A program made the translations under genes and the position numbers. The notes beneath the pieces are model-generated. The model did no database searches and was not told where the DNA came from. It saw only the letters and a list, made by a program, of their open reading frames with translations. Positions 7,754 through 45,147 of a DNA stretch of 64,000 bases are shown in pieces. Where the stretch lies: contig CAVSPF010000005.1 in assembly GCA_963729995.1 (NCBI GenBank), forward strand, positions 24,344 to 88,343, in the 5' to 3' direction. The stretch comes from an uncultured Solirubrobacterales bacterium. GTDB lineage: Bacteria > Actinomycetota > Thermoleophilia > Solirubrobacterales > 70-9. Each line of letters starts with the position of its first letter. Position 1 is the stretch's first letter.

Positions 7754-8977
7754 ATGCCGTTTCGATTCACAAGACGGCTTCCAACCGCGCGCGGCACGGT
7801 TGGCGGCGCCCTCCTGGGCGCCCTCGTCGCCATGGCGCTCCTCGCTCCCGTCGTGCGCGCGGCCGCCAGGTGGGTTGTGGTCGGCCACGGCTTCGGCCAC
7901 GGCGTCGGAATGAGCCAGTACGGCGCCTACGGCTACGCCAAGCACGGCGCGGACTACCGCTTCATTCTCGGTCACTACTACTCCGGGACCACAATCGGCA
8001 CGCTGCCCCGGCCGCGCGTCGTTCGCGTCCTGATCGACGTATCCCGCGGCGACGTGGGCTTCAGCGGGGCAGGCGACGCCTGCGGCAGGAGCCTGGCGCC
8101 GGGACACCCTTACGAGGCCCACCGAGCGGGGGGATCCGTGCTGCTGCGCAACTCCGCCGGGCGGACGCTTGCCAACTGTGGCCGCAAGCTGCGGGCGGCT
8201 GGCAATGGTCGCATCGACATCGCCGGAGCCGGGACCTATCGCGGCGCCCTGCAGGTGGTGCCGACCGACAGCGACGCCCACTCCCTCAACGCTGTCAACG
8301 CCCTCTCGGTCGACCAGTACGTCAAGGGGGTGATTCCCAATGAGATGCCGTCGTCCTGGCCGATGGCGGCACTGCGCGCCCAGGCGGTGGCAGCCCGTTC
8401 GTACGCGCTCAGCGTCCAGGTGGGCGGCAACGGCTTCGACCTCTACGACAACACGAGCAGCCAGGTCTACCGGGGGCTCGAAAGCGGGACGGCGCGCACC
8501 GACGCGGCGGCGAGCTCCACCGATGGGCAGGTCGTGATGTACGGCGGGAGCATTGCCCAGACCTACTTCTCCGCCTGCTCAGGTGGGTACACCGAGAGCG
8601 TCCAGAACGTCTTCTTCGGACCGTCGATCCCGTACCTCGTCGGCGTCCCCGACCCCTACGACTACTACTGCCCGCTGCATACCTGGACGCTGCGCTTCTC
8701 AGAGCCGCAGATCAGCGCCAAGCTGGGGAGCGACCTCAGCGGCCAGTTGAAGCAGGTGGTCGTAACCAAGCGCGGCGTCTCGCCCCGCATCGTCTGGGCG
8801 CGGCTCTACGGGACGGGCGGCGTGACGAGGATCCGCGGCGACCAGCTCGCCTCCGCGCTGGGGGCATACGACAGCTGGATGACCTTCCGCAGGGTCGTCA
8901 ACGGCCAGGTCGCCGGTGGCGGGAAACCCGAAGGAGCAGCACCGCCCGCGCCTCCCGGCGGCACCTCGCCTGGTTGA
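7754..8977 (+). CDS. SpoIID/LytB-domain protein (amidase-enhancer family), secreted
   Basis: GHGFGHGVGMSQYGAYGYA and VYRG/SACSGGYTE motifs. Signal-like N-terminus after MPFRF. The track ORF start at 6776 is an antisense extension over the ALDH gene. Confidence 0.8.
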   Translation: MPFRFTRRLPTARGTVGGALLGALVAMALLAPVVRAAARWVVVGHGFGHGVGMSQYGAYGYAKHGADYRFILGHYYSGTTIGTLPRPRVVRVLIDVSRGDVGFSGAGDACGRSLAPGHPYEAHRAGGSVLLRNSAGRTLANCGRKLRAAGNGRIDIAGAGTYRGALQVVPTDSDAHSLNAVNALSVDQYVKGVIPNEMPSSWPMAALRAQAVAARSYALSVQVGGNGFDLYDNTSSQVYRGLESGTARTDAAASSTDGQVVMYGGSIAQTYFSACSGGYTESVQNVFFGPSIPYLVGVPDPYDYYCPLHTWTLRFSEPQISAKLGSDLSGQLKQVVVTKRGVSPRIVWARLYGTGGVTRIRGDQLASALGAYDSWMTFRRVVNGQVAGGGKPEGAAPPAPPGGTSPG

Positions 8978-8986
8978 GAGCGTGTC

Positions 8987-9976
8987 TCAGCCGTCCGGGT
9001 AGGGCTGGATCGGGATGCCGTGGTCGGCCTCGCGCATTCCCAGCTCGTACGCCGCGCCCGCCGCCAGGGAGAGATGCTTCGCTGGAAGCGCTGGGCGTTC
9101 GACGGTCAGCTCGAGATCTGCCACCGAGCAGTTCACCGTGTTGTGCTCAGGCCCCTTCGGGTCCGCGTAGACCCAGCCGACGAAGTCCTTCGGGGGAGCC
9201 GAGACGCGGCCGCGAACGACGATGTCCCTGCCGGGAAGGACGAAGGAGCAGGCGGTCGGCGACTCCTCGATCGCGGCGGAACGGACCTTGCCGAAGCCGC
9301 CGAGACGGTGGGCCTCGCCATCGAGCACCAGCATCCCCGTGGGGACCCACGGCGTCGTCCACGGGCCGATCTTGATCCGGGCGGCGCCAGCGTCGAAGTA
9401 GCTGTCGGGCGAGCCCTCGAAACCCGTCCCCTCCAGCCAGACCCAGCGCTCGGCGTGCTCGCTGCCCCAGTTGTGGCCGATCATGCCCGGCCACCCCGCC
9501 AGGTCGAGCGTCTCGCCGCCGATCTCGAGGCGGCCGTCGAAGCGCGCGTTCGGATAGGGAGCAATGAACTTGGTGCGCGGCACCCGCGCCTCGTAGAGCC
9601 AGTCGGCGGGCAGGTACCTGCAGGGCTTGGCGTCGCCGGAGAAGGTGAAGTCCCAGGAGGCCTTGACGGCGTCCGTGTCGACCGCTCCCGTCGCCCTGCC
9701 GGGCCCGATCTCCGCCCGATCGACCCGGATCCACGACCCGGCCGGTGCCGAGAGCTCCGCCGCCGGCACGGTCACCTTGGTCGCGCGCGGCCCCCCGCCG
9801 TCGCGGTCGAAGAGAACGAACCAGATCGATGCGTTCGGCTCGGCTCCGGGCCGCTTGTGGACCGTATGCCGAATCCACACGCCCTGGCCCCCGCCCGGGC
9901 GGCAGGCCTTGATGTAGAAGCTCTCGTAGTGGCCGGCCTTGGCGGCGACGGCCGGGAACCGCGCGTCCTGGTTCAT
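8987..9976 (-). CDS. Conserved hypothetical protein
   Basis: Coding-like composition. Probable start is MNQDARF at 9976, with 10015 possible. No motif recognised. Confidence 0.5.
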   Translation of the reverse strand: MNQDARFPAVAAKAGHYESFYIKACRPGGGQGVWIRHTVHKRPGAEPNASIWFVLFDRDGGGPRATKVTVPAAELSAPAGSWIRVDRAEIGPGRATGAVDTDAVKASWDFTFSGDAKPCRYLPADWLYEARVPRTKFIAPYPNARFDGRLEIGGETLDLAGWPGMIGHNWGSEHAERWVWLEGTGFEGSPDSYFDAGAARIKIGPWTTPWVPTGMLVLDGEAHRLGGFGKVRSAAIEESPTACSFVLPGRDIVVRGRVSAPPKDFVGWVYADPKGPEHNTVNCSVADLELTVERPALPAKHLSLAAGAAYELGMREADHGIPIQPYPDG

Positions 9977-34553: not shown

Positions 34554-34595
34554 TGCCCCGAGCAGGATTCGAACCTGCGGCCTACTCCTTAGGAG
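34554..34595 (-). pseudogene. 3' half of the resident tRNA-Arg(CCT), from anticodon loop to the discriminator base
   Basis: The reverse complement reads CTCCTAAGGAGTAGGCCGCAGGTTCGAATCCTGCTCGGGGCA. It joins the 5' half at 45106..45147 into a perfect 74-nt cloverleaf. Confidence 0.9.
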
Positions 34596-35235
34596 CGTCA
34601 GTTTGTCAAGTCCTGAACTGGCTTGAAATCCCGAAAGTGGCTTGCCAATGCGGTTTCGAAGAAAGACGCCAACGGCCGCCAGGGCGTCAGAGGGCAGATT
34701 TGTCCCAACCTTTGTTCCAACCCGGAGGCGCGATAATCGAGGCCATTGCCCCGGTAGCTCAGCTGGAAAGAGCGGCCGCCTCCTAAGCGGCAGGTCGCCG
34801 GTTCGAATCCGGCCCGGGGCACTCTTGTATCCATCGCTTTGTAGAACTCGGTCCAATTCCGATCGGGCCCAAAGACGGTGGCTCGGCTCCACCCGCGCCT
34901 CAGACGTAGGTCGAGGCGCAGGTGCTGTTTCGAGTGACTTGACACTTCTCTAAACACCCGACTTAGCACGGATATCCGCACAATCTCTTGGGGCGCCATC
35001 GGGCCGCTGGTTGCGGTCAGCTGCCCAGTTGTGGACTTGGCCACGAGCTGAGGCTCTGGCCAACAGGAGGAAGGTTTTGTCTCTTGTGGAAACCACGCCG
35101 TTTCCCTACAGTTACGGATTCCCGCAGGGGTTGCAGGGACGCAAAGGCCCTACTGGGCCTAGGGAAAGCAACAGGGATAGAAGGACCTCTCAACACAGAG
35201 AGAAGGGATCTGTGCGCAATTCCGCAAGGGATTGG
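34586..35235 (+). repeat. Left copy of the 650-bp perfect inverted repeat (core + arm with tRNA-Arg)
   Basis: It is the reverse complement of 42556..43205. Every block I compared is identical, and the ORF translations spanning the repeat are identical. Confidence 0.9.
34748..34821 (+). tRNA. tRNA-Arg(CCT), element-borne copy 1
   Basis: GCCCCGG TA GCTC AGCTGGAAA GAGC G GCCGC CTCCTAA GCGGC AGGTC GCCGG TTCGAAT CCGGC CCGGGGC A. All four stems pair perfectly. No encoded CCA. Confidence 0.92.
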
Positions 35236-35536: not shown

Positions 35537-35690
35537 TCGACAGGTTGGAACAAAAGGGAGTTGGAACGGATTGCCTATGAAGGTGAGAGAGACAGGCACC
35601 GATCACCACGGCAATGAGCTTCCCGATGGCATCTCCGCCACCACCCGCAAGGCCGACGGCGTCATCGTTGGGTCGTCGCCTGCCACCTGC
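35537..35690 (+). pseudogene. Decayed 5' fragment of a second integrase gene
   Basis: Homologous to the reverse complement of the int 5' region (about 44860..45006). Nearly identical over 35583..35670. A 10-nt length difference and a stop (..LEQKGVGTDCL*) break the frame. Confidence 0.75.
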
Positions 35691-36018: not shown

Positions 36019-37023
36019 CTACACAGGGTGTCCCTGGTTAGCACTGCGAAGTCCTGGGCGAGCAGACAAAAAGCGCCGGTAGCGCTCCTTCTGCCAAGGG
36101 CTTGGGTCGGCGTCCACCGCCGCGCGCACCTTGACCGGCAACCCCTCGTCGGTCCGCATCGCCAGCGGCGCCAGAAGGCGCCACGCCGCGAGCGCAGCTT
36201 CCTCACCGCGGTGGGCGAGGGAGTAGAGGACGTGGGCGGCGTAGTCGGCGAGCTGTAGGCCGGCGTCCTCATCTGATCGGGGTGTGCGGAGGCCACCGGA
36301 CAAGATTCGATCAGTCGCGACCCGTTTCTCTTCACCGATCCCGTTTCGCCGGTAGAAAGGGTGATCTGCGGGCCACTCTCCCGGAACGACGAGTTCGGTG
36401 CGGGTGTCGGCGGCGAAAATCGGCCCCACGACGTCGCGTAGGGCTTCGCCGGCCTTGCCGGGGTTCGCGCCCTCCCGCGGATCGACAGCGATGTCGAAGC
36501 TCCAGCTCTCCGCGGGTGGAAGCAGCGTCGTGTAGCCGATTGCGCCTGCCGAGAGCGCCCGGGCCAGAAGCCAGGGCATCAGGACCGCGTACTGAAAGAA
36601 GTCGGGTGCTGAAATGTGACGTTGGTTGTGAAAGCGGGTGCGCAGCCGCGCGATCGCCGCGCTTTTGCTCGGGTCGCCGGCCGCTGTCTTTGAAGCCGCG
36701 GCGGACCGCTCGAACTCGGCGACCTGGGCGGCGCGATGCGCACGCTGCGCCTTGGGGCCGAAGATCTCCGAGTCGCTGATGATGCCAACGAGGCGTAGGT
36801 CCGCGTCGACGAAGAACCCCGCGACCTCGAGCAACTGCCCCTCGTCCATTTCGCCTGCCTTGAGCTCACGGGGCATCTCCCAGTCGTGCCTTTTTTCGGC
36901 GACGAATTCCTCGACGGCGGCGACCTTGGAGTCCGGATAGACGACTGCCGCCACTACGCAGAGTGCGAGCGGAGAGGCGCTCTTGAAGCTGAACTGACCG
37001 GCCTCATCAATGCGGATCTTCAC
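36019..37023 (-). CDS. DUF3800-family protein
   Basis: N-terminal KIRIDEAGQ (the DUF3800 I-D-E-S/A-G motif) and C-terminal GLQLADYAAHVLY motif. GTG start. Confidence 0.65.
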   Translation of the reverse strand: MKIRIDEAGQFSFKSASPLALCVVAAVVYPDSKVAAVEEFVAEKRHDWEMPRELKAGEMDEGQLLEVAGFFVDADLRLVGIISDSEIFGPKAQRAHRAAQVAEFERSAAASKTAAGDPSKSAAIARLRTRFHNQRHISAPDFFQYAVLMPWLLARALSAGAIGYTTLLPPAESWSFDIAVDPREGANPGKAGEALRDVVGPIFAADTRTELVVPGEWPADHPFYRRNGIGEEKRVATDRILSGGLRTPRSDEDAGLQLADYAAHVLYSLAHRGEEAALAAWRLLAPLAMRTDEGLPVKVRAAVDADPSPWQKERYRRFLSARPGLRSANQGHPV

Positions 37024-37096: not shown

Positions 37097-38272
37097 ATGA
37101 GCAACGATCTCTTCGGTCTTGAGCGCTCCGGCTTCGCGGCCCAAGTGATGGAGTTGGCGAGGGCCGAGCGACCCTCGCGGCGCGAGGGCGAGCGACTCTT
37201 CGGTGAGCTGTTGGGCCGGATTGAGACGGCGCCGCCCGATCGCTTCGGCGAACTCTTCGCGTCCCCGGCCGTGCTGCGCTACCTGACCGAACACCTCATT
37301 AACGGTTATCTGCGCTTCCCGCTCGACGTCGGTTGGGCTCCGAAGAGCGCGCGCAGCTTCATCCGCGTGCGCGCGCTCAGCGCGCTCGGGCGCTACCCGA
37401 ACGCCAACGTCACCTGCCATCGCGGCGCCTACCGTATTCACCGCGGACGGCCTTACTTGGTCAGCGAGATCTCGCCCCGCGAGGAGGTGAAGTGGAGCTA
37501 TGGCTCAGAGCTCGCCGACTGGTCGCGCCAGGAGGTGCGAATGGCTACGGCGATCTCCTGCGCGGAGTCGGGCGGCTTCAACGCCTATATCAGCTCGAGC
37601 GCTTTCGACCTCCCCGACGAGGTTCTCGCCTGTGCCGAGCGTCGCACAGATCGCGTCGACTTCGCCCTGGAGTGCGCCGTGTTGGTCAGCGAAGCCTGGA
37701 ATCGATCCGCCATCAGTCGCGGTTACTCGACCCAGACCGCAGCCCCTGTCTTCGAGTTCGCCGACTACCGCGACCACATCGCCGGGGCACGGCGGCTCTT
37801 TGCCGGCTTTCGGGTCTCCAGCCCCCTGCTCCTGCGAACCGCTGGCCACTACCTGAAGGCGTCGATGCTGTGGGCGACTGACGGCTTCCGCGAAGACGCC
37901 CTCGCCAACCTGCTCTTCGCCCTCGAAGGGTGCATGCTGCTCTTTCAAGAGGGCAACGGCGCCCAGACTGAGCGGCTCGACCGTCCCCTGCTCACCGAGA
38001 TCTTCCGGCGCACCTACTTGCATGGAGAGAGCACCATGCACTTCGTCGAAGAGGGCCTCGGCTGGGGAGCGCGCCGCGCGCAGATCATCCATCCCCAACT
38101 CGCAACCGAGAACGGCTGGAAGCCGCTGATCTTCGGCGAGGATTACTACCTCTTCGACAAGATGGTGCGTGCCCTGCTCACCTACCTGATCAGCGGGCGC
38201 AGCTTCGAGGACTACGAGTTGGCCGAAGGATCGTCGCGGTTCGAAGCGGGGTGTTCACCGCCAGACCATTGA
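37097..38272 (+). CDS. Hypothetical protein with an alpha-helical C-terminal region carrying an Rx4H (HEPN-like) motif
   Basis: 391 aa. GWGARRAQIIHPQL fits Rx4-6H. No other motif recognised. Convergent with the four-gene operon. Confidence 0.5.
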   Translation: MSNDLFGLERSGFAAQVMELARAERPSRREGERLFGELLGRIETAPPDRFGELFASPAVLRYLTEHLINGYLRFPLDVGWAPKSARSFIRVRALSALGRYPNANVTCHRGAYRIHRGRPYLVSEISPREEVKWSYGSELADWSRQEVRMATAISCAESGGFNAYISSSAFDLPDEVLACAERRTDRVDFALECAVLVSEAWNRSAISRGYSTQTAAPVFEFADYRDHIAGARRLFAGFRVSSPLLLRTAGHYLKASMLWATDGFREDALANLLFALEGCMLLFQEGNGAQTERLDRPLLTEIFRRTYLHGESTMHFVEEGLGWGARRAQIIHPQLATENGWKPLIFGEDYYLFDKMVRALLTYLISGRSFEDYELAEGSSRFEAGCSPPDH

Positions 38273-38288: not shown

Positions 38289-38954
38289 TCACGCTCGCTC
38301 CCACAGAACTGCCTCTACTTCACCTCCACACCGGCGCCGCTCGACCCGAATCGTCAGATCTGTAATATCGGGAATGCCACGTTCGACCGCTAGCTCAATG
38401 ATGGCGCTTTTGCCGCGGGCTCGCCGACGCTCCTCGAACGGATAGTCAGCCACTGGTAGAAACGTCTTTGATCCACGGGGTTGGGGCTTGTAGAGGGTAC
38501 TTCCTGAGTTAATAGGTGACAGCCGCACACGCTTAAGATGGCGCTGTAGTAGAAGATCAGTATCGACGTGAAGAACATCATGTGACTGATCTCGGTACGC
38601 ATTGGCTCCTAGTAGCGTCTCAAGATGAGGTTCGTCGAGCCAGAAAAATACTCGAGAGTTGAGCACATCAAGCCACTCCTCCAACGTCATATCCGTAAGA
38701 CATTGGCGAAGGGACTTCTCGCGCAATGGGATTTGATCCCGTACGATCGCCTCCCCGTACTCCCCGTGGCACAGGGGAACCGATAAAGGCCTACGCTGCC
38801 GAAGAATCGCCGAGCGTACGGGATCCTTAACCTCGTACAAGTCGATTAGAGCATGGGTAGACAACAGGCCATGCCGCTTGATGCTCTCCCACGAACCCTG
38901 TTGGGCCATGTGGTAAAGCGTCGGGTAATGGCGCACGATGTCAGCAGGATCCAT
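38289..38954 (-). CDS. DarT-like / ART-fold protein (putative ADP-ribosyltransferase; resembles what I recall as DUF7002)
   Basis: Order of motifs: TLYHMAQQGSWESIKRHGLLS (a [FY]H..-type NAD-site His), RVFFWLD, and SAIIELAVERGIP (candidate catalytic Glu). This matches the H / aromatic / E arrangement of DarT. The ATG at 38954 lies 2 nt after the upstream stop. The track uses a TTG at 38963. Confidence 0.5.
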   Translation of the reverse strand: MDPADIVRHYPTLYHMAQQGSWESIKRHGLLSTHALIDLYEVKDPVRSAILRQRRPLSVPLCHGEYGEAIVRDQIPLREKSLRQCLTDMTLEEWLDVLNSRVFFWLDEPHLETLLGANAYRDQSHDVLHVDTDLLLQRHLKRVRLSPINSGSTLYKPQPRGSKTFLPVADYPFEERRRARGKSAIIELAVERGIPDITDLTIRVERRRCGGEVEAVLWERA

Positions 38955-38956
38955 GG

Positions 38957-40564
38957 CTACCAAGCGCGTCGGTCGATCACGCTTCGGACGTGAAAGCGAG
39001 TTGATATCAACGAGACGGGAGCCGCCGCTACACGCTCAACCTCCTCGATAAAGCGAATAGTTTTGGGGGTGAGCTGATCGAAGCGGCGGGCCTGCCGATT
39101 CCTAACGTCGAGATAGTCGACAAAGGTGAGTGCGATGTCGGTTGCGCCATTGATCTCGGAAGCTTTTCGAAGTAGCTCCCAATCGAACTCTCCGACGCGC
39201 CGCTGCTTTTTCGACACCGATCCTTTCTCCACCCGGCGAAGCTCGCCATACGGGATCTTTGAGCGACGGGAAATCTCTCTCCAGTTGGTGCCCTGAGACA
39301 TCCAACCTGAGGTTTTACCTTTAGCCGTAGGGCTCTGTACCCGAATGGGATAAGTACGACAGACGACTATGACTCGGCGCACTCGACTCGGCGAGATGCC
39401 CATCTCAGCGAGACAACCGCTTGCCGTAGTGTCACGGGACGTGACGTGTGGATAGTGGCCGTGGTAATGGCTTAGGCCAGTGCCCTGCGTACCCTCAACC
39501 AGAACGCGGTCTCCGCGAGCGTAGGCATCGACGAGAATCTCATGGGCAGGCGCAATGAATGGCTTTAGTGGAGCGACGTCGCGCGCAAGCCGCATGTCGG
39601 CGCCTCGCTCGAGAATACGACGCGCAGTCGCTGCACCCACGCCTTGCCCAGTTGAGCCGATGTCCTTCACCAAGCCACCCTCAGCCTCGACGTCCGCACC
39701 GCTAATAATCATTGCTTGGGGGTCGATATGAAGTCTTCCGTGCTCCACACCGCAGGCCGCAATCTCGTCAAAGAGGACATCCACATTCAGCACCGCGCCA
39801 GGCCCAATCAGAATCGGCGCCTCGCTAGTAAGCGTTGCCGATGGAAGAAGACGATGGGTAAGCGTTTCGTCGCGTGGCACCTTATGGCCGGCGTTTGGAC
39901 CGCCAACCCGGCAAAGCAAATCGTACTCTGCTCCGATCGCGTAGGCGACATTACCCTTTCCCTCGCTGCCATATTGACCTCCAACGATGACATCCACGAG
40001 GGCACCCGGATCGCGGGCATTTAGACCGAGGTAGCTCGCTGCACGGACCTCGACGTCTTTCTTGGTGTTTTTGCCAGTATCAATGACGATATCGGCGTCG
40101 TGTTCCAACTCCGGAACTCTTCGCTCCGTCGGATCAGCGAGAACCTCGGCATAGCTCGCACGCTCCTTAAATCGTTGCCTTGGCCGCCTCCGATATCGCT
40201 GCTCCAACACCTCCCGCGGCGCGGTGAGGTGGACATGGACGACCTGACTCGGAAATCCATGTCTTAAGGCGTCAATTTGCTCAACAACCCGCGCCGAATC
40301 TATGACCACGACTTTATGTTCGTCCAACGCCGCAATCTGTGGTATGAAGTTCTCGGCCACCCACTTGCCGTTAGTTGCTTTGTCTAAGCGGGTTCCGAAG
40401 CGCTGCATCGCTCCGCGCTCCCGAGGTACTTCGCCGGCTGCCAGCCTTTCAAGGAGAGCGCTCGTCTTTAGATGGACCGCGTCAAAGCGCGCTTCGAGTC
40501 GGCTCGCGAGGGTCGTCTTACCAGCAGAAACAGGCCCCGATAGCACGACCACAACTCGGGCCAT
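38957..40564 (-). CDS. Fusion of a P-loop NMP-kinase-like domain and an adenylosuccinate-synthetase (PurA) homolog
   Basis: N-terminal Walker A LSGPVSAGKTTL. The C-terminal half aligns motif by motif with PurA: GGQYGSEGKGN (PurA GTQWGDEGKGK), GGPNAGHK (GGHNAGHT), IGSTGQGVGAA (IGTTGRGIGPA), EGTQGTGLSHYHGHYPHVTSRDTTASG ([27 protein letters not shown]). Confidence 0.8.
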   Translation of the reverse strand: MARVVVVLSGPVSAGKTTLASRLEARFDAVHLKTSALLERLAAGEVPRERGAMQRFGTRLDKATNGKWVAENFIPQIAALDEHKVVVIDSARVVEQIDALRHGFPSQVVHVHLTAPREVLEQRYRRRPRQRFKERASYAEVLADPTERRVPELEHDADIVIDTGKNTKKDVEVRAASYLGLNARDPGALVDVIVGGQYGSEGKGNVAYAIGAEYDLLCRVGGPNAGHKVPRDETLTHRLLPSATLTSEAPILIGPGAVLNVDVLFDEIAACGVEHGRLHIDPQAMIISGADVEAEGGLVKDIGSTGQGVGAATARRILERGADMRLARDVAPLKPFIAPAHEILVDAYARGDRVLVEGTQGTGLSHYHGHYPHVTSRDTTASGCLAEMGISPSRVRRVIVVCRTYPIRVQSPTAKGKTSGWMSQGTNWREISRRSKIPYGELRRVEKGSVSKKQRRVGEFDWELLRKASEINGATDIALTFVDYLDVRNRQARRFDQLTPKTIRFIEEVERVAAAPVSLISTRFHVRSVIDRRAW

Positions 40565-40568
40565 CGGA

Positions 40569-41948
40569 CTAAACGTCGAGCCTCAGCTCATCGCCGGCAG
40601 GATTAGCAACCTCCTCGATTGGCTTCCCAGGAGGTACGTAGACCTTCACCGGAGTGCCATTTCGCGTAAGCGTTTCCTCGATAATCTCTCGAATGACAAG
40701 CCAACGGCCGCCAGCCTGACCGGCTCCTAGTCGAGGCATGTGAATTGCTGCGCCTTGGTCTTTCGCAAAGTGAGCCACTGTCAGTAACGCGTCGCGGACG
40801 GCGGCATAGCGAATACGGGGCCGTGCGGAGGGTCCGTAGCCATGCTGGCCGACAATCGTGGCTACATATAGGCCGCTACCAACGTCTGTTATATGGGCGT
40901 CGCCTAACCGGAGGCCGCCGTGGTGTGTCTGTGCCCACACTCGGAAGTCATCCTGTGCCTCCGGATACTCCCGCCGTAACGCTCGAGCGAACTCGCCTCC
41001 CCAATTTGGCGTCTTATCATTTACCAAGTGCACAATCACTCGTGCTCCTGACCCGTGCGGCTTAGTGGCGTCACCGTGTACCACAGTAGGCTCGATGTCG
41101 GGAACCGATCGTACTCCGTGAGGCTGCAGTAAGCCGAGCACGCGCGGAAAACGCTGTCCTGGAAATGGCGGCGTACCTACGGCTTGAACCAGGAGATCGC
41201 GAAGGCGATCAGACCAGTCTTCCCGGTCCTTTGCAGTAAAGCCCACAGCAGTGCACTCCGAGAGCACCGAACCGGCGGGCCGCCGTTCACCCCGTGAGAT
41301 GGGCGGCCTCCATGCTCGCGATGGAACCGTATAGTCAATTCGAAATGGCGACGCAGCCGACAGTGGATCGACATGGGCCGCGGCAAACATCGCGACAGGG
41401 TAGGTCGCTAGCTTCGTCGCTCGACGCAAAAGTACCTCCGTAGAGACACCATACGCCTCACGCAGTTCCAGGAGATGCTCTATCTGCGACGGGCCCTCCC
41501 GTAACGCGGGAAGGGTGTCCGCCGGCATCAGAAACTCAGCAGCGATTATGTTGCAGAGAAGCTCAAGCTGCCAACCGTCTGGCGGGTCGGCCGCTGGATT
41601 ATTGCGATAGCGAGAGACTCTCGCGACATCTGGGAAGAGGGTATGCGCCAACTCATGGGCGAGGGAAAAGCGGACGCGATACTTGGGCCGCGTCGGGTTG
41701 TACTCAATTACGAGTTTCCGACCGATCGGAAGCGTCCGCGCATCCAGTAGTTCGTCCTTGGGGACCACCTCAATCCCCAGAATCTCCGCCAACTCGAGAG
41801 GATCAAACGGCGGACCTTCCCAGCCTTTCTCGACGGCACCAAAGACAACGTCTTGTGCTGCCTTTTCGGCAGCTTCAATGGGATCACGATCCCGCGCGAA
41901 ATCGAGGACGGATTCATTGGTCCAATAAGCCGACATCTCGAAGATCAC
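40569..41948 (-). CDS. Fusion of an ImmA/IrrE-type zinc metallopeptidase and a macrodomain (DarG/TARG1-like)
   Basis: HEXXH in RFSLAHELAHTLF with ImmA-like context. The C-terminus has GDATKP..RVIVHLVNDKTPNWGGEFARAL..YPEA and IHMPRLGAGQAGGRW, which are macrodomain motifs. GGAGG lies 5 nt before the GTG at 41948. The track uses a TTG at 41960. Confidence 0.75.
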   Translation of the reverse strand: MIFEMSAYWTNESVLDFARDRDPIEAAEKAAQDVVFGAVEKGWEGPPFDPLELAEILGIEVVPKDELLDARTLPIGRKLVIEYNPTRPKYRVRFSLAHELAHTLFPDVARVSRYRNNPAADPPDGWQLELLCNIIAAEFLMPADTLPALREGPSQIEHLLELREAYGVSTEVLLRRATKLATYPVAMFAAAHVDPLSAASPFRIDYTVPSRAWRPPISRGERRPAGSVLSECTAVGFTAKDREDWSDRLRDLLVQAVGTPPFPGQRFPRVLGLLQPHGVRSVPDIEPTVVHGDATKPHGSGARVIVHLVNDKTPNWGGEFARALRREYPEAQDDFRVWAQTHHGGLRLGDAHITDVGSGLYVATIVGQHGYGPSARPRIRYAAVRDALLTVAHFAKDQGAAIHMPRLGAGQAGGRWLVIREIIEETLTRNGTPVKVYVPPGKPIEEVANPAGDELRLDV

Positions 41949-41965
41949 TCTAGCCTCCAAAGAGG

Positions 41966-42319
41966 CTATATCGATGGAGCGGAGTGGCTCAGACCCTGCA
42001 AGCTGCCAAGGAGGAGCCAGGCAAACTCCATTGTCGCCCGCAAATGGCCTCTACAGCCATCCCACGCTGGCTCAGAGGGCAATCCATCGAGCAAGGCGAC
42101 CACGTTGTCCAGCCCAAGCTTTAACGCCTGCCGGTCCTTGTTGTGCGATCGCTCAACTACAGCCGCCGTTAGAAGGAACAATTCCTTGGCCGAGGGAATC
42201 TCGCCTCGGGCGACGCGGCTCGCAATTCGCCCCGAAGCCCGCGCCACATGCTCGGTTACGGTCGCTTCGGACGGCGTCGTCATGAAAGCGAGACGTTCGT
42301 TGGGAACAAGTGAGGACAC
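41966..42319 (-). CDS. Small hypothetical protein, first gene of the operon
   Basis: 117-aa ORF (GTG start, no clear SD). Its stop lies 17 nt before the next start. It occupies the position an ImmR-type partner would take, but I see no HTH motif. Confidence 0.4.
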   Translation of the reverse strand: MSSLVPNERLAFMTTPSEATVTEHVARASGRIASRVARGEIPSAKELFLLTAAVVERSHNKDRQALKLGLDNVVALLDGLPSEPAWDGCRGHLRATMEFAWLLLGSLQGLSHSAPSI

Positions 42320-42555: not shown

Positions 42556-43205
42556 CCAATCCCTTGCGGAATTGCGCACAGATCCCTTCTCTCTGTGTTG
42601 AGAGGTCCTTCTATCCCTGTTGCTTTCCCTAGGCCCAGTAGGGCCTTTGCGTCCCTGCAACCCCTGCGGGAATCCGTAACTGTAGGGAAACGGCGTGGTT
42701 TCCACAAGAGACAAAACCTTCCTCCTGTTGGCCAGAGCCTCAGCTCGTGGCCAAGTCCACAACTGGGCAGCTGACCGCAACCAGCGGCCCGATGGCGCCC
42801 CAAGAGATTGTGCGGATATCCGTGCTAAGTCGGGTGTTTAGAGAAGTGTCAAGTCACTCGAAACAGCACCTGCGCCTCGACCTACGTCTGAGGCGCGGGT
42901 GGAGCCGAGCCACCGTCTTTGGGCCCGATCGGAATTGGACCGAGTTCTACAAAGCGATGGATACAAGAGTGCCCCGGGCCGGATTCGAACCGGCGACCTG
43001 CCGCTTAGGAGGCGGCCGCTCTTTCCAGCTGAGCTACCGGGGCAATGGCCTCGATTATCGCGCCTCCGGGTTGGAACAAAGGTTGGGACAAATCTGCCCT
43101 CTGACGCCCTGGCGGCCGTTGGCGTCTTTCTTCGAAACCGCATTGGCAAGCCACTTTCGGGATTTCAAGCCAGTTCAGGACTTGACAAACTGACGCTCCT
43201 AAGGA
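42556..43205 (-). repeat. Right copy of the 650-bp perfect inverted repeat
   Basis: Reverse complement of 34586..35235 (coordinates sum to 77791). Ends with the core CTCCTAAGGA at 43196..43205. Confidence 0.9.
42970..43043 (-). tRNA. tRNA-Arg(CCT), element-borne copy 2
   Basis: Identical to the copy at 34748..34821, in inverted orientation. Confidence 0.92.
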
Positions 43206-43317
43206 ACCCTTCGTAGCGCGACAGCGGGCGAACGGTTACCTCCCTCAAAGCCACTCGTAGAGCCGAATTAGGCTGATCGAGAGTGGAGCAGATCCGCCGC
43301 TTGTTCGACAGGTTGGA
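43196..43317 (+). repeat. Left copy of the 122-bp perfect inverted repeat (core + integrase-proximal arm + first 35 nt of int)
   Basis: Checked base by base against the reverse complement of 44994..45115 and found identical. With the adjacent 650-bp repeat it forms an intact attP-like junction in inverted orientation. Confidence 0.9.
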
Positions 43318-44993
43318 CCGACTGGAGAGTCGCCAGCGCGAGCGCTCGGAGAGCGATCAGCACCCGGCCAAGAACCTATGGCTACGGACGCCGAAACGGG
43401 CGACGGCGCCGCTGAAAGGCAGCCTGATGCTGGGGGGATTAGGCCGGAACAGCGGGATGCCGCTCTGGCTCTCGAGCCCTGCGTCTTCGGGCTTGACGCT
43501 CGCCCTCTTTAGCGGCACGAGCCCGCCGCCGACTCTGGGCCTCCCGCTGAGGGCCCTCTCGCTCGTCGGGCTTGAATGGATTCTGTTCGACTCCGAGCCG
43601 AGCCCGCCGACACTCGTCCTCGATCTCAAACGGCGGCTGGCCGAAGTAGCGGGCGATCAGGTGGCTGTAGTAACGCTGCAGGGTCTCGATGTCGTGTGCC
43701 GCCCACCCGGCAAGCAAGTGCAGGTTCATTCCGTGGGGTCCCATCACCAGGGTTGAGTGAAGGGCCATCGAAATTGCCGTATGGCGACAGTCGTAAAAGG
43801 TCATTCTGTGGAGCCCGACGGGTGCGTCCGGCGCTTGCGCCGCGGCGGTCCGGGCCGGAATCCACACTCTTTTGACCCACTGGTTGTAGTTGTTCTTTGT
43901 CCACGCCAGCGGTACCGGTTCGCCCCCATCCTCTGGCGTCACCCATATAGGCCCTTCGTCACCAAGGGCCTGAAAGACCAAACCATTCTGCGGCTGAGGC
44001 CCGAAGCGATCCTCCAGCGCTTCGCGGTAGACGGCGATGCGATCCCAGGCGTTGGGGAGAACGAGGGCGACGTGCGCCCCCGTCTTCAAGCCTGGGATGA
44101 CTTCCGGATCGCCCTGGCGCGCCCGCTGCAGCTCGACCGTCCCGATCCCGGCGCTTGGGTCTGGCGGGGCAAACAGATTTTCCCAGGCGGCCGACAGACG
44201 CCATTCGGATGGTCGCGAGGCGATGGTGTAGCCCATCGCTGCCACTAAGGCGGCATCGCGGAGCGGCAACAGATCATCACGCGCTGGACGAGCCAGCACC
44301 GCCTCGATGATCCGCTCCAAGCCGATCGCATCAGCGGCGTAGGCGAGGCGCGATTTGCTCTGCTTGGGAAGCTGGATCAGTCCCGACAGCTCCACGGTAA
44401 GAGCGTTTGGGTGCCGGCGCCTTCCCCAGCGCATGACGGCTCGAAACAGTTTCAGGATTTCTCGTCGCTTTGATTGCTTCAAACCGTCGGCGATCAGTTC
44501 ATCCTGAAAGCGGACAAGAGTCGCGGGGTCCGCTGAAATTCGATCAAGTCGTGTTCGTCCGATTGGTCGCGGCTCGATCTCCTTCGCCCAAAATTTGGCC
44601 GACCTCTCGTGGTATTCCTGGCTCACTTCCGGTCCGTGGTTCACGATCCACTCGCGGAGAAGATCGTTCGGAGTCATGGCGCAGGCCGGGTCGACTCTGA
44701 CCACCGCGCCGTCGACCTTGACCGCTTCGCGGGCTTCCGCGAGGAAGGTGACCGCCGCCTCCAACGCTCGATCCAACGAGCCCAGCTTGCGCTCCGAGAA
44801 CGAACGGCTCGGATGACGCCTGATCCCGTTGTGGTCCTCCTCCCACCAGCGACTCCGGTAGCCGACGATGACGCCGTCGGCCTTGCGGGTGGTGGCGGAA
44901 ATGCCATCGGGAAGCTCATTGCCGTGGTGATCGGTGCCTGTCTCTCTCACCTCCAAAGCCATCCGTTCCAGCCCCTTTTGTCCCAACCTCTGT

Positions 44994-45147
<154 letters not shown>

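Follow-up and report, generated by a model that had tools for sequence, protein, structure and literature searches.

The gene at the centre of this account lies at 38289-38954 on the reverse strand of a 64,000-nucleotide stretch of DNA, which we call the window, from an uncultured Solirubrobacterales bacterium (assembly GCA_963729995.1, contig CAVSPF010000005.1, positions 24,344 to 88,343 of the forward strand). It encodes a 221-residue protein of the Pfam family DUF7002 and closes a three-gene operon. Ahead of it come a gene that joins an M78 metallopeptidase domain to a macrodomain and another that joins a nucleotide-kinase-like domain to a PurA-like ligase. The DUF7002 protein is a DarT-related enzyme with the ADP-ribosyltransferase (ART) fold, and it belongs to a family of its own rather than to DarT. 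The original prediction, made from the sequence alone, had described a divergent DarT-like protein and the probable effector of its operon.

Read from the window, the open reading frame (ORF) runs from an ATG at 38954-38952 to a stop codon at 38291-38289, and every motif on which the prediction leaned is found in its product: LYHMAQQGSWESIKRHGLLS at residues 13-32, VFFWLD at 102-107 and IELAV at 186-190. The suggestion that this might be DUF7002 was right. The Pfam model (PF22531) matches with E=4.4e-67 and 225.9 bits, against a gathering cut-off of 27 bits, over model positions 1-194 of 195. This is a real gene, far beyond a chance ORF; its homologues number 681 in a 90%-clustered database and fall into 1,984 clusters at 50% identity, and an identical gene in the same operon is present in an independent short-read assembly. 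A one-genome-per-species scan found 334 genomes with a relative of DUF7002, the best 80 of which were analysed, and all counts out of 80 below refer to these. The operon is read on the reverse strand: the first gene (40569-41960), a 4-nt gap, the second gene (38957-40564), a 2-nt gap and the DUF7002 gene. The prediction had the last junction exactly, since the TAG of the PurA-like ORF at 38959-38957 is followed by two bases, 38956-38955, and then the ATG. It was also correct to call the gene the last of the operon, because the next ORF downstream (37097-38272, forward strand) is convergent with it, 16 nt separating the two stop codons. The gene and its candidate active-site codons are as follows.

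38289..38954, reverse strand: DUF7002 protein, divergent DarT-related ART-fold enzyme (PF22531, AlphaFold2, Foldseek, hhalign)
38910..38912, reverse strand: codon of His15, motif I LYH on β1; invariant in 54 homologues and 80 loci, aligned with the His of DarT IYH
38790..38792, reverse strand: codon of Arg55, candidate equivalent of the DarT catalytic Arg (R51 in DarT2, R52 in DarT1); invariant, low-confidence alignment
38640..38648, reverse strand: codons of Phe103-Phe104-Trp105, motif II aromatic strand; invariant FFW, aligned with DarT PFYF
38502..38519, reverse strand: codons of Ser146-Pro-Ile-Asn149-Ser-Gly151, the SPINSG loop; aligned with DarT SLSNAG
38394..38396, reverse strand: codon of Glu187, motif III IELAV, candidate catalytic Glu; invariant, aligned with DarT E165

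An AlphaFold2 model of the protein, built on 54 homologues, has a mean predicted local distance difference test score (pLDDT) of 93.9 and a predicted template-modelling score (pTM) of 0.90. Searched against the PDB with Foldseek, it matched nothing but ART folds at ranks 1-49, and the first match outside that fold had a probability of 0.01. Top of the list was E. coli DarT1 (8baq, E=9e-4). Below it came the cholera, heat-labile (LT) and pertussis toxins, the DarTG fusion 7omu, Thermus DarT, Tpt1/KptA and the Rhs ART toxins. The prediction had proposed this very comparison with DarT and Tpt1, and had reckoned with a non-ART fold as one outcome; the model matches ART folds instead, DarT1 first and Tpt1/KptA among them. 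The BFVD viral fold library gave the same ART-type matches, though weak ones only. Scans with PADLOC and NCBIfam models gave no ART or DarT match for the protein. Template-modelling (TM) scores to solved ARTs are modest (0.3-0.45, all below 0.5), and the protein is therefore a distant relative and no close copy.

Homology to DarT was examined by profile-profile alignment, with a DarT profile made from bona fide DarT genes on plasmids, each adjoining a macrodomain gene of the DarG type, and enlarged by database search. With narrow profiles, hhalign put the DUF7002-DarT probability at 27.6%. With broad ones (257 DUF7002 sequences against 47 of DarT) it rose to 92.5%, with P=4.8e-7 over an N-terminal stretch of 34 columns, while the best of the controls, one reversed and 21 column-shuffled DarT profiles, reached P=0.047. 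The link to DarT became convincing only once both profiles had been broadened and the controls run. The extended alignment stays collinear over the whole protein. The DarT-like ART fold of the original prediction is thus supported by the ART-only Foldseek ranks and the 92.5% profile match alike, and we would be surprised if ART fold and DarT homology turned out to be wrong. Structure and profile-profile alignment together support the DarT DNA ADP-ribosyltransferases, of the H-Y-E clade, as the nearest characterized relatives of DUF7002. A DarT of a Klebsiella plasmid (444 residues; locus L008, 1968-3302) reads FAYHFTHIDNLEGIIKNGLLSTN and contains GLLST, a pentapeptide invariant in DUF7002 and a further, if small, hint that the two are related at the N terminus.

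The same alignment recovered, in order, the motif equivalences that had been read by eye (LYH with IYH, VFFW with VPFY, IELAV with AEFLV), and added two more, QRR with QRR and SPINSG with SLSNAG. In motif I, Y14-H15 corresponds to Y8-H9 of DarT (Meiothermus numbering), with H15 on model strand 12-18, and G29 is aligned with DarT G23. R55 (in RQRRP or QRRP) is set at DarT R49, one residue off the invariant R50 of KQRRL, in a part of the alignment that carries low confidence. V102-F-F-W105, on model strand 101-105, lies over V67-P-F-Y70, and W105 pairs with the Tyr of the H-Y-E triad. The SPINSG loop places S146, N149 and G151 at DarT S122, N125 and G127, N125 being nearly invariant in DarT. E187, at the start of model strand 187-191, falls, likewise in a low-confidence part of the alignment, on the invariant E165 of Meiothermus DarT, the position of the catalytic DarT Glu (E160 / E152); E165 corresponds to E160 of T. 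aquaticus DarT, and E160A is an inactive DarT mutant (PMC9411070). The aligned motif residues thus lie on the strands expected of them, and the three ART catalytic motifs, H15, F103-F104-W105 and E187, occupy the β1, β2 and β5 positions of the model. Twelve residues (H15, G29, R55, R72, D73, F103, F104, W105, N149, G151, R160 and E187) are invariant in 80/80 genome loci, whatever the context. In the 54 homologues P147, I148, N149 and G151 are invariant and residues 146-165 nearly so. We propose that the protein keeps a DarT-like candidate catalytic set made up of His15, Arg55, Phe-Phe-Trp105, Asn149 and Glu187. We judge it likely to be a genuine transferase.

DUF7002 and DarT share, then, motif order, YH, QRR, the aromatic strand, S..N.G and the glutamate strand (A/I)E(F/L)(L/A)V. 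They part company in the DarT hidden Markov model, which DUF7002 does not match, in a TM-score of about 0.4, in an insert of about 40 residues with an invariant R-D-Q, and in Trp for the Tyr of the H-Y-E clade. It is on account of the insert, the Trp in motif II and the missing model match that we place DUF7002 in a family of its own. Tpt1, another ART-fold enzyme, has an Arg-His-Arg-Arg tetrad, with an Arg directly before the β1 His, and no catalytic Glu. Tpt1/KptA gives the lowest Foldseek root-mean-square deviation (rmsd) of all the matches but a lower TM-score (about 0.3), and where Tpt1 has Arg-His, DUF7002 has Y14 before H15, in the window and in the consensus, together with the invariant E187.

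The prediction had also called the sequence otherwise unrelated to anything nameable, and here it had been overtaken: in 2025 a BMC Genomics survey of the ARTs of Legionella (PMC12522546) had already called what appears to be the same family a DarT-like ART, so the fold call is not new. In the parts of the survey on which we draw, the Lmac_3114 family is assigned to the H-Y-E clade as distantly homologous to DarT; its motifs are given as Hxx, FFW and xxE and its likely substrate as DNA. Of its neighbourhoods, 60% hold an adenylosuccinate synthetase, at times along with an AAA domain, and there is a NUDIX-containing variant. DUF7002 has YHM, the invariant FFW and IIE to set beside these motifs, and a PurA-like neighbour in 64/80 loci beside the reported 60%. 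The range of taxa is alike too, with rhizobial and Burkholderia plasmid homologues of DUF7002 standing next to genes annotated as adenylosuccinate synthetase. Matched in this way by the description of motifs, neighbour and host range in those parts of the survey, the Lmac_3114 family is almost certainly DUF7002. The flanks of our 80 loci contained no NUDIX box. The passages of PMC12522546 on which we draw make no mention of DUF7002, of an M78-macrodomain gene, of a PurZ-type Ser or of a defence-island setting.

The complete cassette, with the M78-macrodomain gene, the kinase-PurA-like gene and DUF7002 in that order, occurs in 47/80 loci; 17 have the kinase-PurA-like gene and DUF7002 only, and 16 have DUF7002 alone. 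The tightest partner is the kinase-PurA-like gene, directly upstream of DUF7002 in 64/80 loci, against 47/80 for the M78-macrodomain gene. The 2-nt gap that separates the pair in the window gives way to overlaps elsewhere. Hosts of the full cassette range over Actinomycetota, Acidobacteriota, Verrucomicrobiota, Planctomycetota, Gemmatimonadota, Alphaproteobacteria and, among the archaea, Nitrososphaerota and Bathyarchaeia. The archaeal three-gene cassettes are those of loci L046, L068, L070 and L072 (Bathyarchaeia, Nitrososphaerota and Nitrosopumilus). On a Burkholderia plasmid the two-gene form, a clean module without the macrodomain, is flanked by a transposase gene on one side and an integrase gene on the other. 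No DUF7002 homologue was found in 50,697 phage genomes. The domains of the two partner genes are as follows.

41331..41960, reverse strand: M78 (ImmA/IrrE/CapP-like) zinc-metallopeptidase domain with HELAH (Pfam Peptidase_M78, E=1.4e-14; PADLOC CapP, E=2.4e-16, and RmrA models; PDB IrrE, E=3e-4)
40569..41105, reverse strand: macrodomain of the ALC1-like SCO6735/BT1257 subclass, candidate ADP-ribose eraser (BT1257 2afc, E=2e-29; SCO6735 5e3b, E=6e-26; ALC1, E=5e-9)
40010..40564, reverse strand: N-terminal P-loop domain resembling nucleoside monophosphate (NMP) kinases (Pfam AAA_33, E=1e-10, AAA_18 and AAA_17; Walker A GPVSAGKT)
38957..40009, reverse strand: PurA-family ligase domain with the PurZ-type P-loop QYGSEGKG (Pfam Adenylsucc_synt, E=1e-51)

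The first gene encodes 463 residues, with the M78 domain at the N terminus, the macrodomain at the C terminus and a linker domain of about 90 residues between them. The HExxH of the M78 domain is retained in 41/46 cassette homologues. The macrodomain, which also gives weak matches to DarG models, resembles SCO6735 and BT1257 most. Counted along the 5e3b chain, the residues that correspond to H24, N27 and the essential Q85 of SCO6735 are retained, and the Gln at the catalytic Q85 position is invariant in 47/47 cassette macrodomains. SCO6735 strips DarT-made thymidine-ADP-ribose from DNA efficiently; it also binds DarT and thereby inhibits it, and rescues cells from its action (PMC9411070). The cassette macrodomain differs from SCO6735 and BT1257 in sitting behind an M78 metalloprotease and the linker domain, and in having Gly at the equivalents of K34 and K89.

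The second gene (535 residues) is a fusion of the NMP-kinase-like P-loop domain with the PurA-family ligase. Its kinase domain has weak PDB matches to adenosine phosphosulfate (APS), adenylate, cytidylate and guanylate kinases, and it matches the kinase portion of the PADLOC kinase-dCTP deaminase model (PDLC02373, E=6e-8). The two proteins have a common architecture, a nucleotide-kinase-like N terminus followed by a nucleotide-converting enzyme; in the cassette the catalytic domain is a PurA/PurZ-type ligase instead of a deaminase, and an ART and a macrodomain accompany it. The ligase matches archaeal PurA (2d7u, E=9e-54) and PurZ (7odx, E=1e-27) in the PDB, the closest relative overall being short archaeal PurA, and it stays below every NCBIfam equivalog cut-off, those for PurZ and PurA included. 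Its P-loop (codons near 39970-39993) reads QYGSEGKG, against QYGSTGKG in PurZ 7odx and QWGDEGKG in PurA, and has Ser for Asp13. That Ser, kept in 60/61 cassette ligase homologues, is the PurZ hallmark; PurA retains the catalytic Asp in 99% of sequences (PMC8515928, PMC12884076). The cassette ligase shares the Ser-type P-loop with phage PurZ and departs from PurZ and PurA in being encoded by the host or a mobile genetic element, in its fusion to the kinase-like domain and in altered residues of the aspartate loop (GSVSKKQRR against GTVTGRRRR), and the cassette lacks the DatZ or MazZ partners of phage PurZ. PurZ has so far been a phage hallmark for 2-aminoadenine DNA; judged by these residues, the ligase would be a cellular, kinase-fused enzyme of the PurZ type. 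Basal to phage PurZ in published trees stand four "PurZ-related" sequences from archaea, whose residue at position 13 is Ser or Gly in place of Asp (PMC12884076).

In the closest Solirubrobacterales cassettes a fourth gene, for a deoxynucleoside kinase of the dNK family, overlaps or abuts the end of DUF7002. It lies at 8669-9271 in locus L001 and at 8666-9234 in locus L005, and just downstream of DUF7002 in L015, L016, L018, L019, L021, L022 and L088 as well. It points to deoxynucleotide chemistry. The window holds no remnant of it. Alphaproteobacteria have a different variant, in which the kinase-PurA-like gene and DUF7002 are followed by a conserved convergent gene for a protein of about 455 residues, 56% identical across genera. 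Examples come from Bradyrhizobium, Aminobacter, Microvirga and an Agrobacterium plasmid (L073, 7681-9054, reverse strand; L096, 7507-8865, reverse strand; also L045, L074 and L086). Searches of Pfam, NCBIfam and the PDB gave no match for this protein, whose gene may stand in for the M78-macrodomain gene in Alphaproteobacteria. We rejected three ORFs of the window as cassette components, 41966-42319 (117 residues, upstream of the M78 gene), 36019-37023 and 37097-38272, none of which is conserved with the cassette.

The cassette of the window sits inside a 7.3-kb island of 55-66% GC, in surroundings of 70-72% GC, beside a tRNA-Arg and an integrase-like gene. Its neighbours elsewhere include Kiwa, TIR, DUF4231 and EAD1-trypsin genes, transposases, integrases and recombinases, a context typical of mobile defence loci. 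A perfect inverted repeat of 650 nt (34586-35235 and 42556-43205) brackets the island, each arm holding a tRNA-Arg(CCT), at 34748-34822 on the forward strand and 42969-43043 on the reverse. An independent contig of 6,947 nt covers only the interior of the island and ends at these repeats. They may reflect a genuine inverted duplication, a segment able to invert, or a join made in assembly. The integrase-like ORF (43439-45028, reverse strand), which has no Pfam or NCBIfam match, is itself bracketed by a perfect 122-nt inverted repeat (43196-43317 and 44994-45115). A further inverted pair of 100 nt and 95% identity (35572-35671 and 44862-44961) links a stretch that overlaps the beginning of the ORF with its copy within the island. 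The ORFs at 36019-37023 (reverse strand, 334 residues) and 37097-38272 (forward strand, 391 residues) are also present in the independent contig L097. They had no Pfam, PADLOC or NCBIfam match and no counterpart beside the cassette in the 80 other genomes, and may be unrelated cargo or a defence pair.

What might such a cassette do? Our preferred reading, to which we give a probability of roughly 0.6, is that the package is a DarTG-type reversible ADP-ribosylation module coupled to purine-nucleotide chemistry, probably for phage defence or addiction. Starting from the computed fold, homology, residue conservation and gene linkage, we infer the following course of events. The DUF7002 enzyme would bind NAD+ and transfer ADP-ribose. 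The acceptor would most likely be a nucleobase, whether in single-stranded nucleic acid (DNA or RNA) or as part of a free nucleotide of guanine or thymine, and on the choice of a nucleobase at all we would offer even odds. In the same response its kinase-PurZ-like partner, obligate-looking and probably translationally coupled, would presumably work on the pools of (deoxy)guanylate. The SCO6735-class macrodomain would remove the ADP-ribose adduct, and the M78 protease domain might couple this off-switch to a trigger. A horizontally mobile cassette of this composition is a plausible anti-phage or toxin module.

Several observations weigh against this reading. The structural likeness to DarT is modest (TM 0.42-0.45, rmsd about 8-9 Å in Foldseek), and the alignment of DUF7002 with DarT is confident only over the N-terminal 34 columns, the other equivalences being of low confidence. 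None of the 54 DUF7002 members matched PF14487, the DarT model, even at E<=10, and a PDB profile search with the DUF7002 sequence matched no chain. The insert of about 40 residues (59-98), with its invariant R72-D73-Q74, has no DarT counterpart. In the survey passages on the Lmac_3114 family (PMC12522546), NAD docked in a non-standard position. The macrodomain is missing from at least 17/80 loci, the Burkholderia plasmid module being one of them, and in the window the DNA-positioning lysines of SCO6735, K34 and K89, are both Gly. Then there are the solo genes. Of the 16, about nine lie on contigs too short to judge, and at least seven have ample flanks. One follows directly on ftsY, with a 4-nt overlap, in an alphaproteobacterial metagenome-assembled genome (L061, 6983-7672); another follows directly on dnaE in Rubrobacter marinus (L089, 6986-7615); both keep the full catalytic set. 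Such copies argue against a constitutively toxic enzyme that needs a dedicated antidote, and those beside ftsY and dnaE hint that some members of the family serve in housekeeping or DNA metabolism.

The ART fold of the original prediction has held, and DUF7002 is a candidate for the effector rather than the probable one. The operon contains a second credible effector, the NMP-kinase-like domain fused to the PurZ-type ligase; DUF7002 is linked more tightly to that gene than to the macrodomain, two-gene modules do without the macrodomain altogether, and solo copies by housekeeping genes are not what one expects of an unguarded toxin of the DarT type. We regard it as doubtful that the DUF7002 ART is the sole effector. 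A bolder version of events makes the core pair, kinase-PurZ-type ligase and DarT-like ART, a previously unrecognized antiviral or addiction module. The PurZ chemistry of Z-DNA phages would be turned on invaders, (deoxy)guanylate pools would be converted or drained, the ART would modify guanine or thymine in DNA or nucleotide, and the M78-macrodomain protein would be a resettable safety catch. We think this unlikely.

The main rival turns the relationship between the two downstream genes around. DUF7002 would then be a regulator that reversibly ADP-ribosylates the kinase-PurZ-like enzyme, or some other protein, while the macrodomain erases the mark in the style of DraT/DraG and nitrogenase, and the effector would be the PurZ-like enzyme, depleting or converting the guanine (deoxy)nucleotide pool. 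The close linkage of the pair (64/80, with a 2-nt gap or overlaps) is what such a scheme would lead one to expect, and the kinase-dCTP deaminase defence protein offers a parallel for the joining of a kinase to a nucleotide-converting enzyme. The near-invariance of the substrate loop (146-165) is easier to square with a conserved partner or target than with one caught in an arms race, and the missing DNA-positioning lysines of the macrodomain also speak for this rival. The isoelectric point of DUF7002 does not separate a DNA from a protein target. Yet the nearest relatives by structure and profile, DarT and Tpt1/KptA, are ARTs of nucleic acids, the SCO6735 class of macrodomain prefers DNA-linked over protein-linked ADP-ribose (PMC9411070), and solo genes without a PurA-like partner keep the full active site. 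We judge regulation of this kind improbable.

Rather less probable again is a small-molecule pathway, in which the ART would ADP-ribosylate a free purine nucleotide, much as ScARP does guanine nucleotides, or the product of the PurZ-like enzyme, to yield a signal or antimetabolite that the macrodomain degrades. The partners do resemble enzymes of free nucleotides (NMP-kinase-like, PurZ-type ligase and, in the closest relatives, the dNK-like fourth gene), members of the pierisin/ScARP group of ARTs act on free nucleotides of guanosine and cytidine (PMC12945103), and the atypical NAD docking in the survey passages on Lmac_3114 (PMC12522546) hints at unusual chemistry. Against the idea, no downstream receptor or effector gene is conserved with the cassette in the 80 loci, and there are the solo copies. 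Least probable of all, and in our view a long shot, is that the protein is no transferase but an NAD+ glycohydrolase, a 2'-phosphotransferase like Tpt1/KptA, or a silent module that binds NAD or ADP-ribose. For this one can cite the low rmsd of Tpt1/KptA among the Foldseek matches (4-5 Å), the TM-scores below 0.5 to all solved ARTs, and the Lmac_3114 passages of the same survey, which put RNA 2'-phosphotransferase among the closest relatives and docked NAD unconventionally (PMC12522546). We disfavour it because the Tyr before the His is that of DarT, not the Arg of Tpt1, and because an invariant Glu stands at the β5 position, where it is the mark of H-Y-E and R-S-E transferases. The profile similarity points to DarT as well, and the operon also encodes an eraser macrodomain, which would have most reason to be there if the ART left a covalent ADP-ribose adduct.

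Set beside DarTG (PF14487; 8baq, 7omu-7omy), the reversible ADP-ribosylation module that we prefer has the common ART fold, its best structural match and profile-profile homology in its favour. Both systems have an ALC1-like macrodomain in the operon and both are found on mobile elements or in defence islands. The cassette macrodomain is of the SCO6735 type, with Gln where DarG has Lys, and it is fused to M78. DarT is encoded beside its antitoxin, a DarG macrodomain or a NADAR protein. In the cassette the PurA-like gene lies between macrodomain and ART, and many loci do without the macrodomain, namely the 17 two-gene and the solo loci. The kinase-PurZ-like protein, by contrast, looks an obligate partner in the cassette and is found in no DarTG system.

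The name DUF7002 does not occur in the literature we searched, which, the Legionella ART survey (PMC12522546) apart, has nothing on PurA or adenylosuccinate in connection with defence. Nor did that literature yield the M78-macrodomain first gene, the SCO6735-class identity of the eraser, the PurZ-type Ser, the archaeal copies or the defence-island setting. The full anatomy of the cassette and the PurZ signature of its ligase were thus not found reported there, and the value of the work lies in this system-level anatomy rather than in the assignment of a fold.

Among bacterial systems that ADP-ribosylate DNA to fight phages, DarTG is, to our knowledge, the only one well understood. If our preferred reading is true, DUF7002 would be a second widespread and deeply diverged DarT-like lineage, of some 2,000 clusters at 50% identity, spread over many bacterial phyla and some archaea, and wired to a PurZ-type purine enzyme and to a macrodomain of the class that erases ADP-ribose from DNA. 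Should the core pair prove antiviral in its own right, the archaeal cassettes could point to the cellular lineage from which phages drew their PurZ. The three-gene cassette is compact and easily cloned, and suits the study of how ADP-ribosylation and nucleotide pools cooperate. Through it the "orphan" macrodomains of the SCO6735 type would gain a natural transferase partner, and PurZ-like chemistry would gain its first cellular context.

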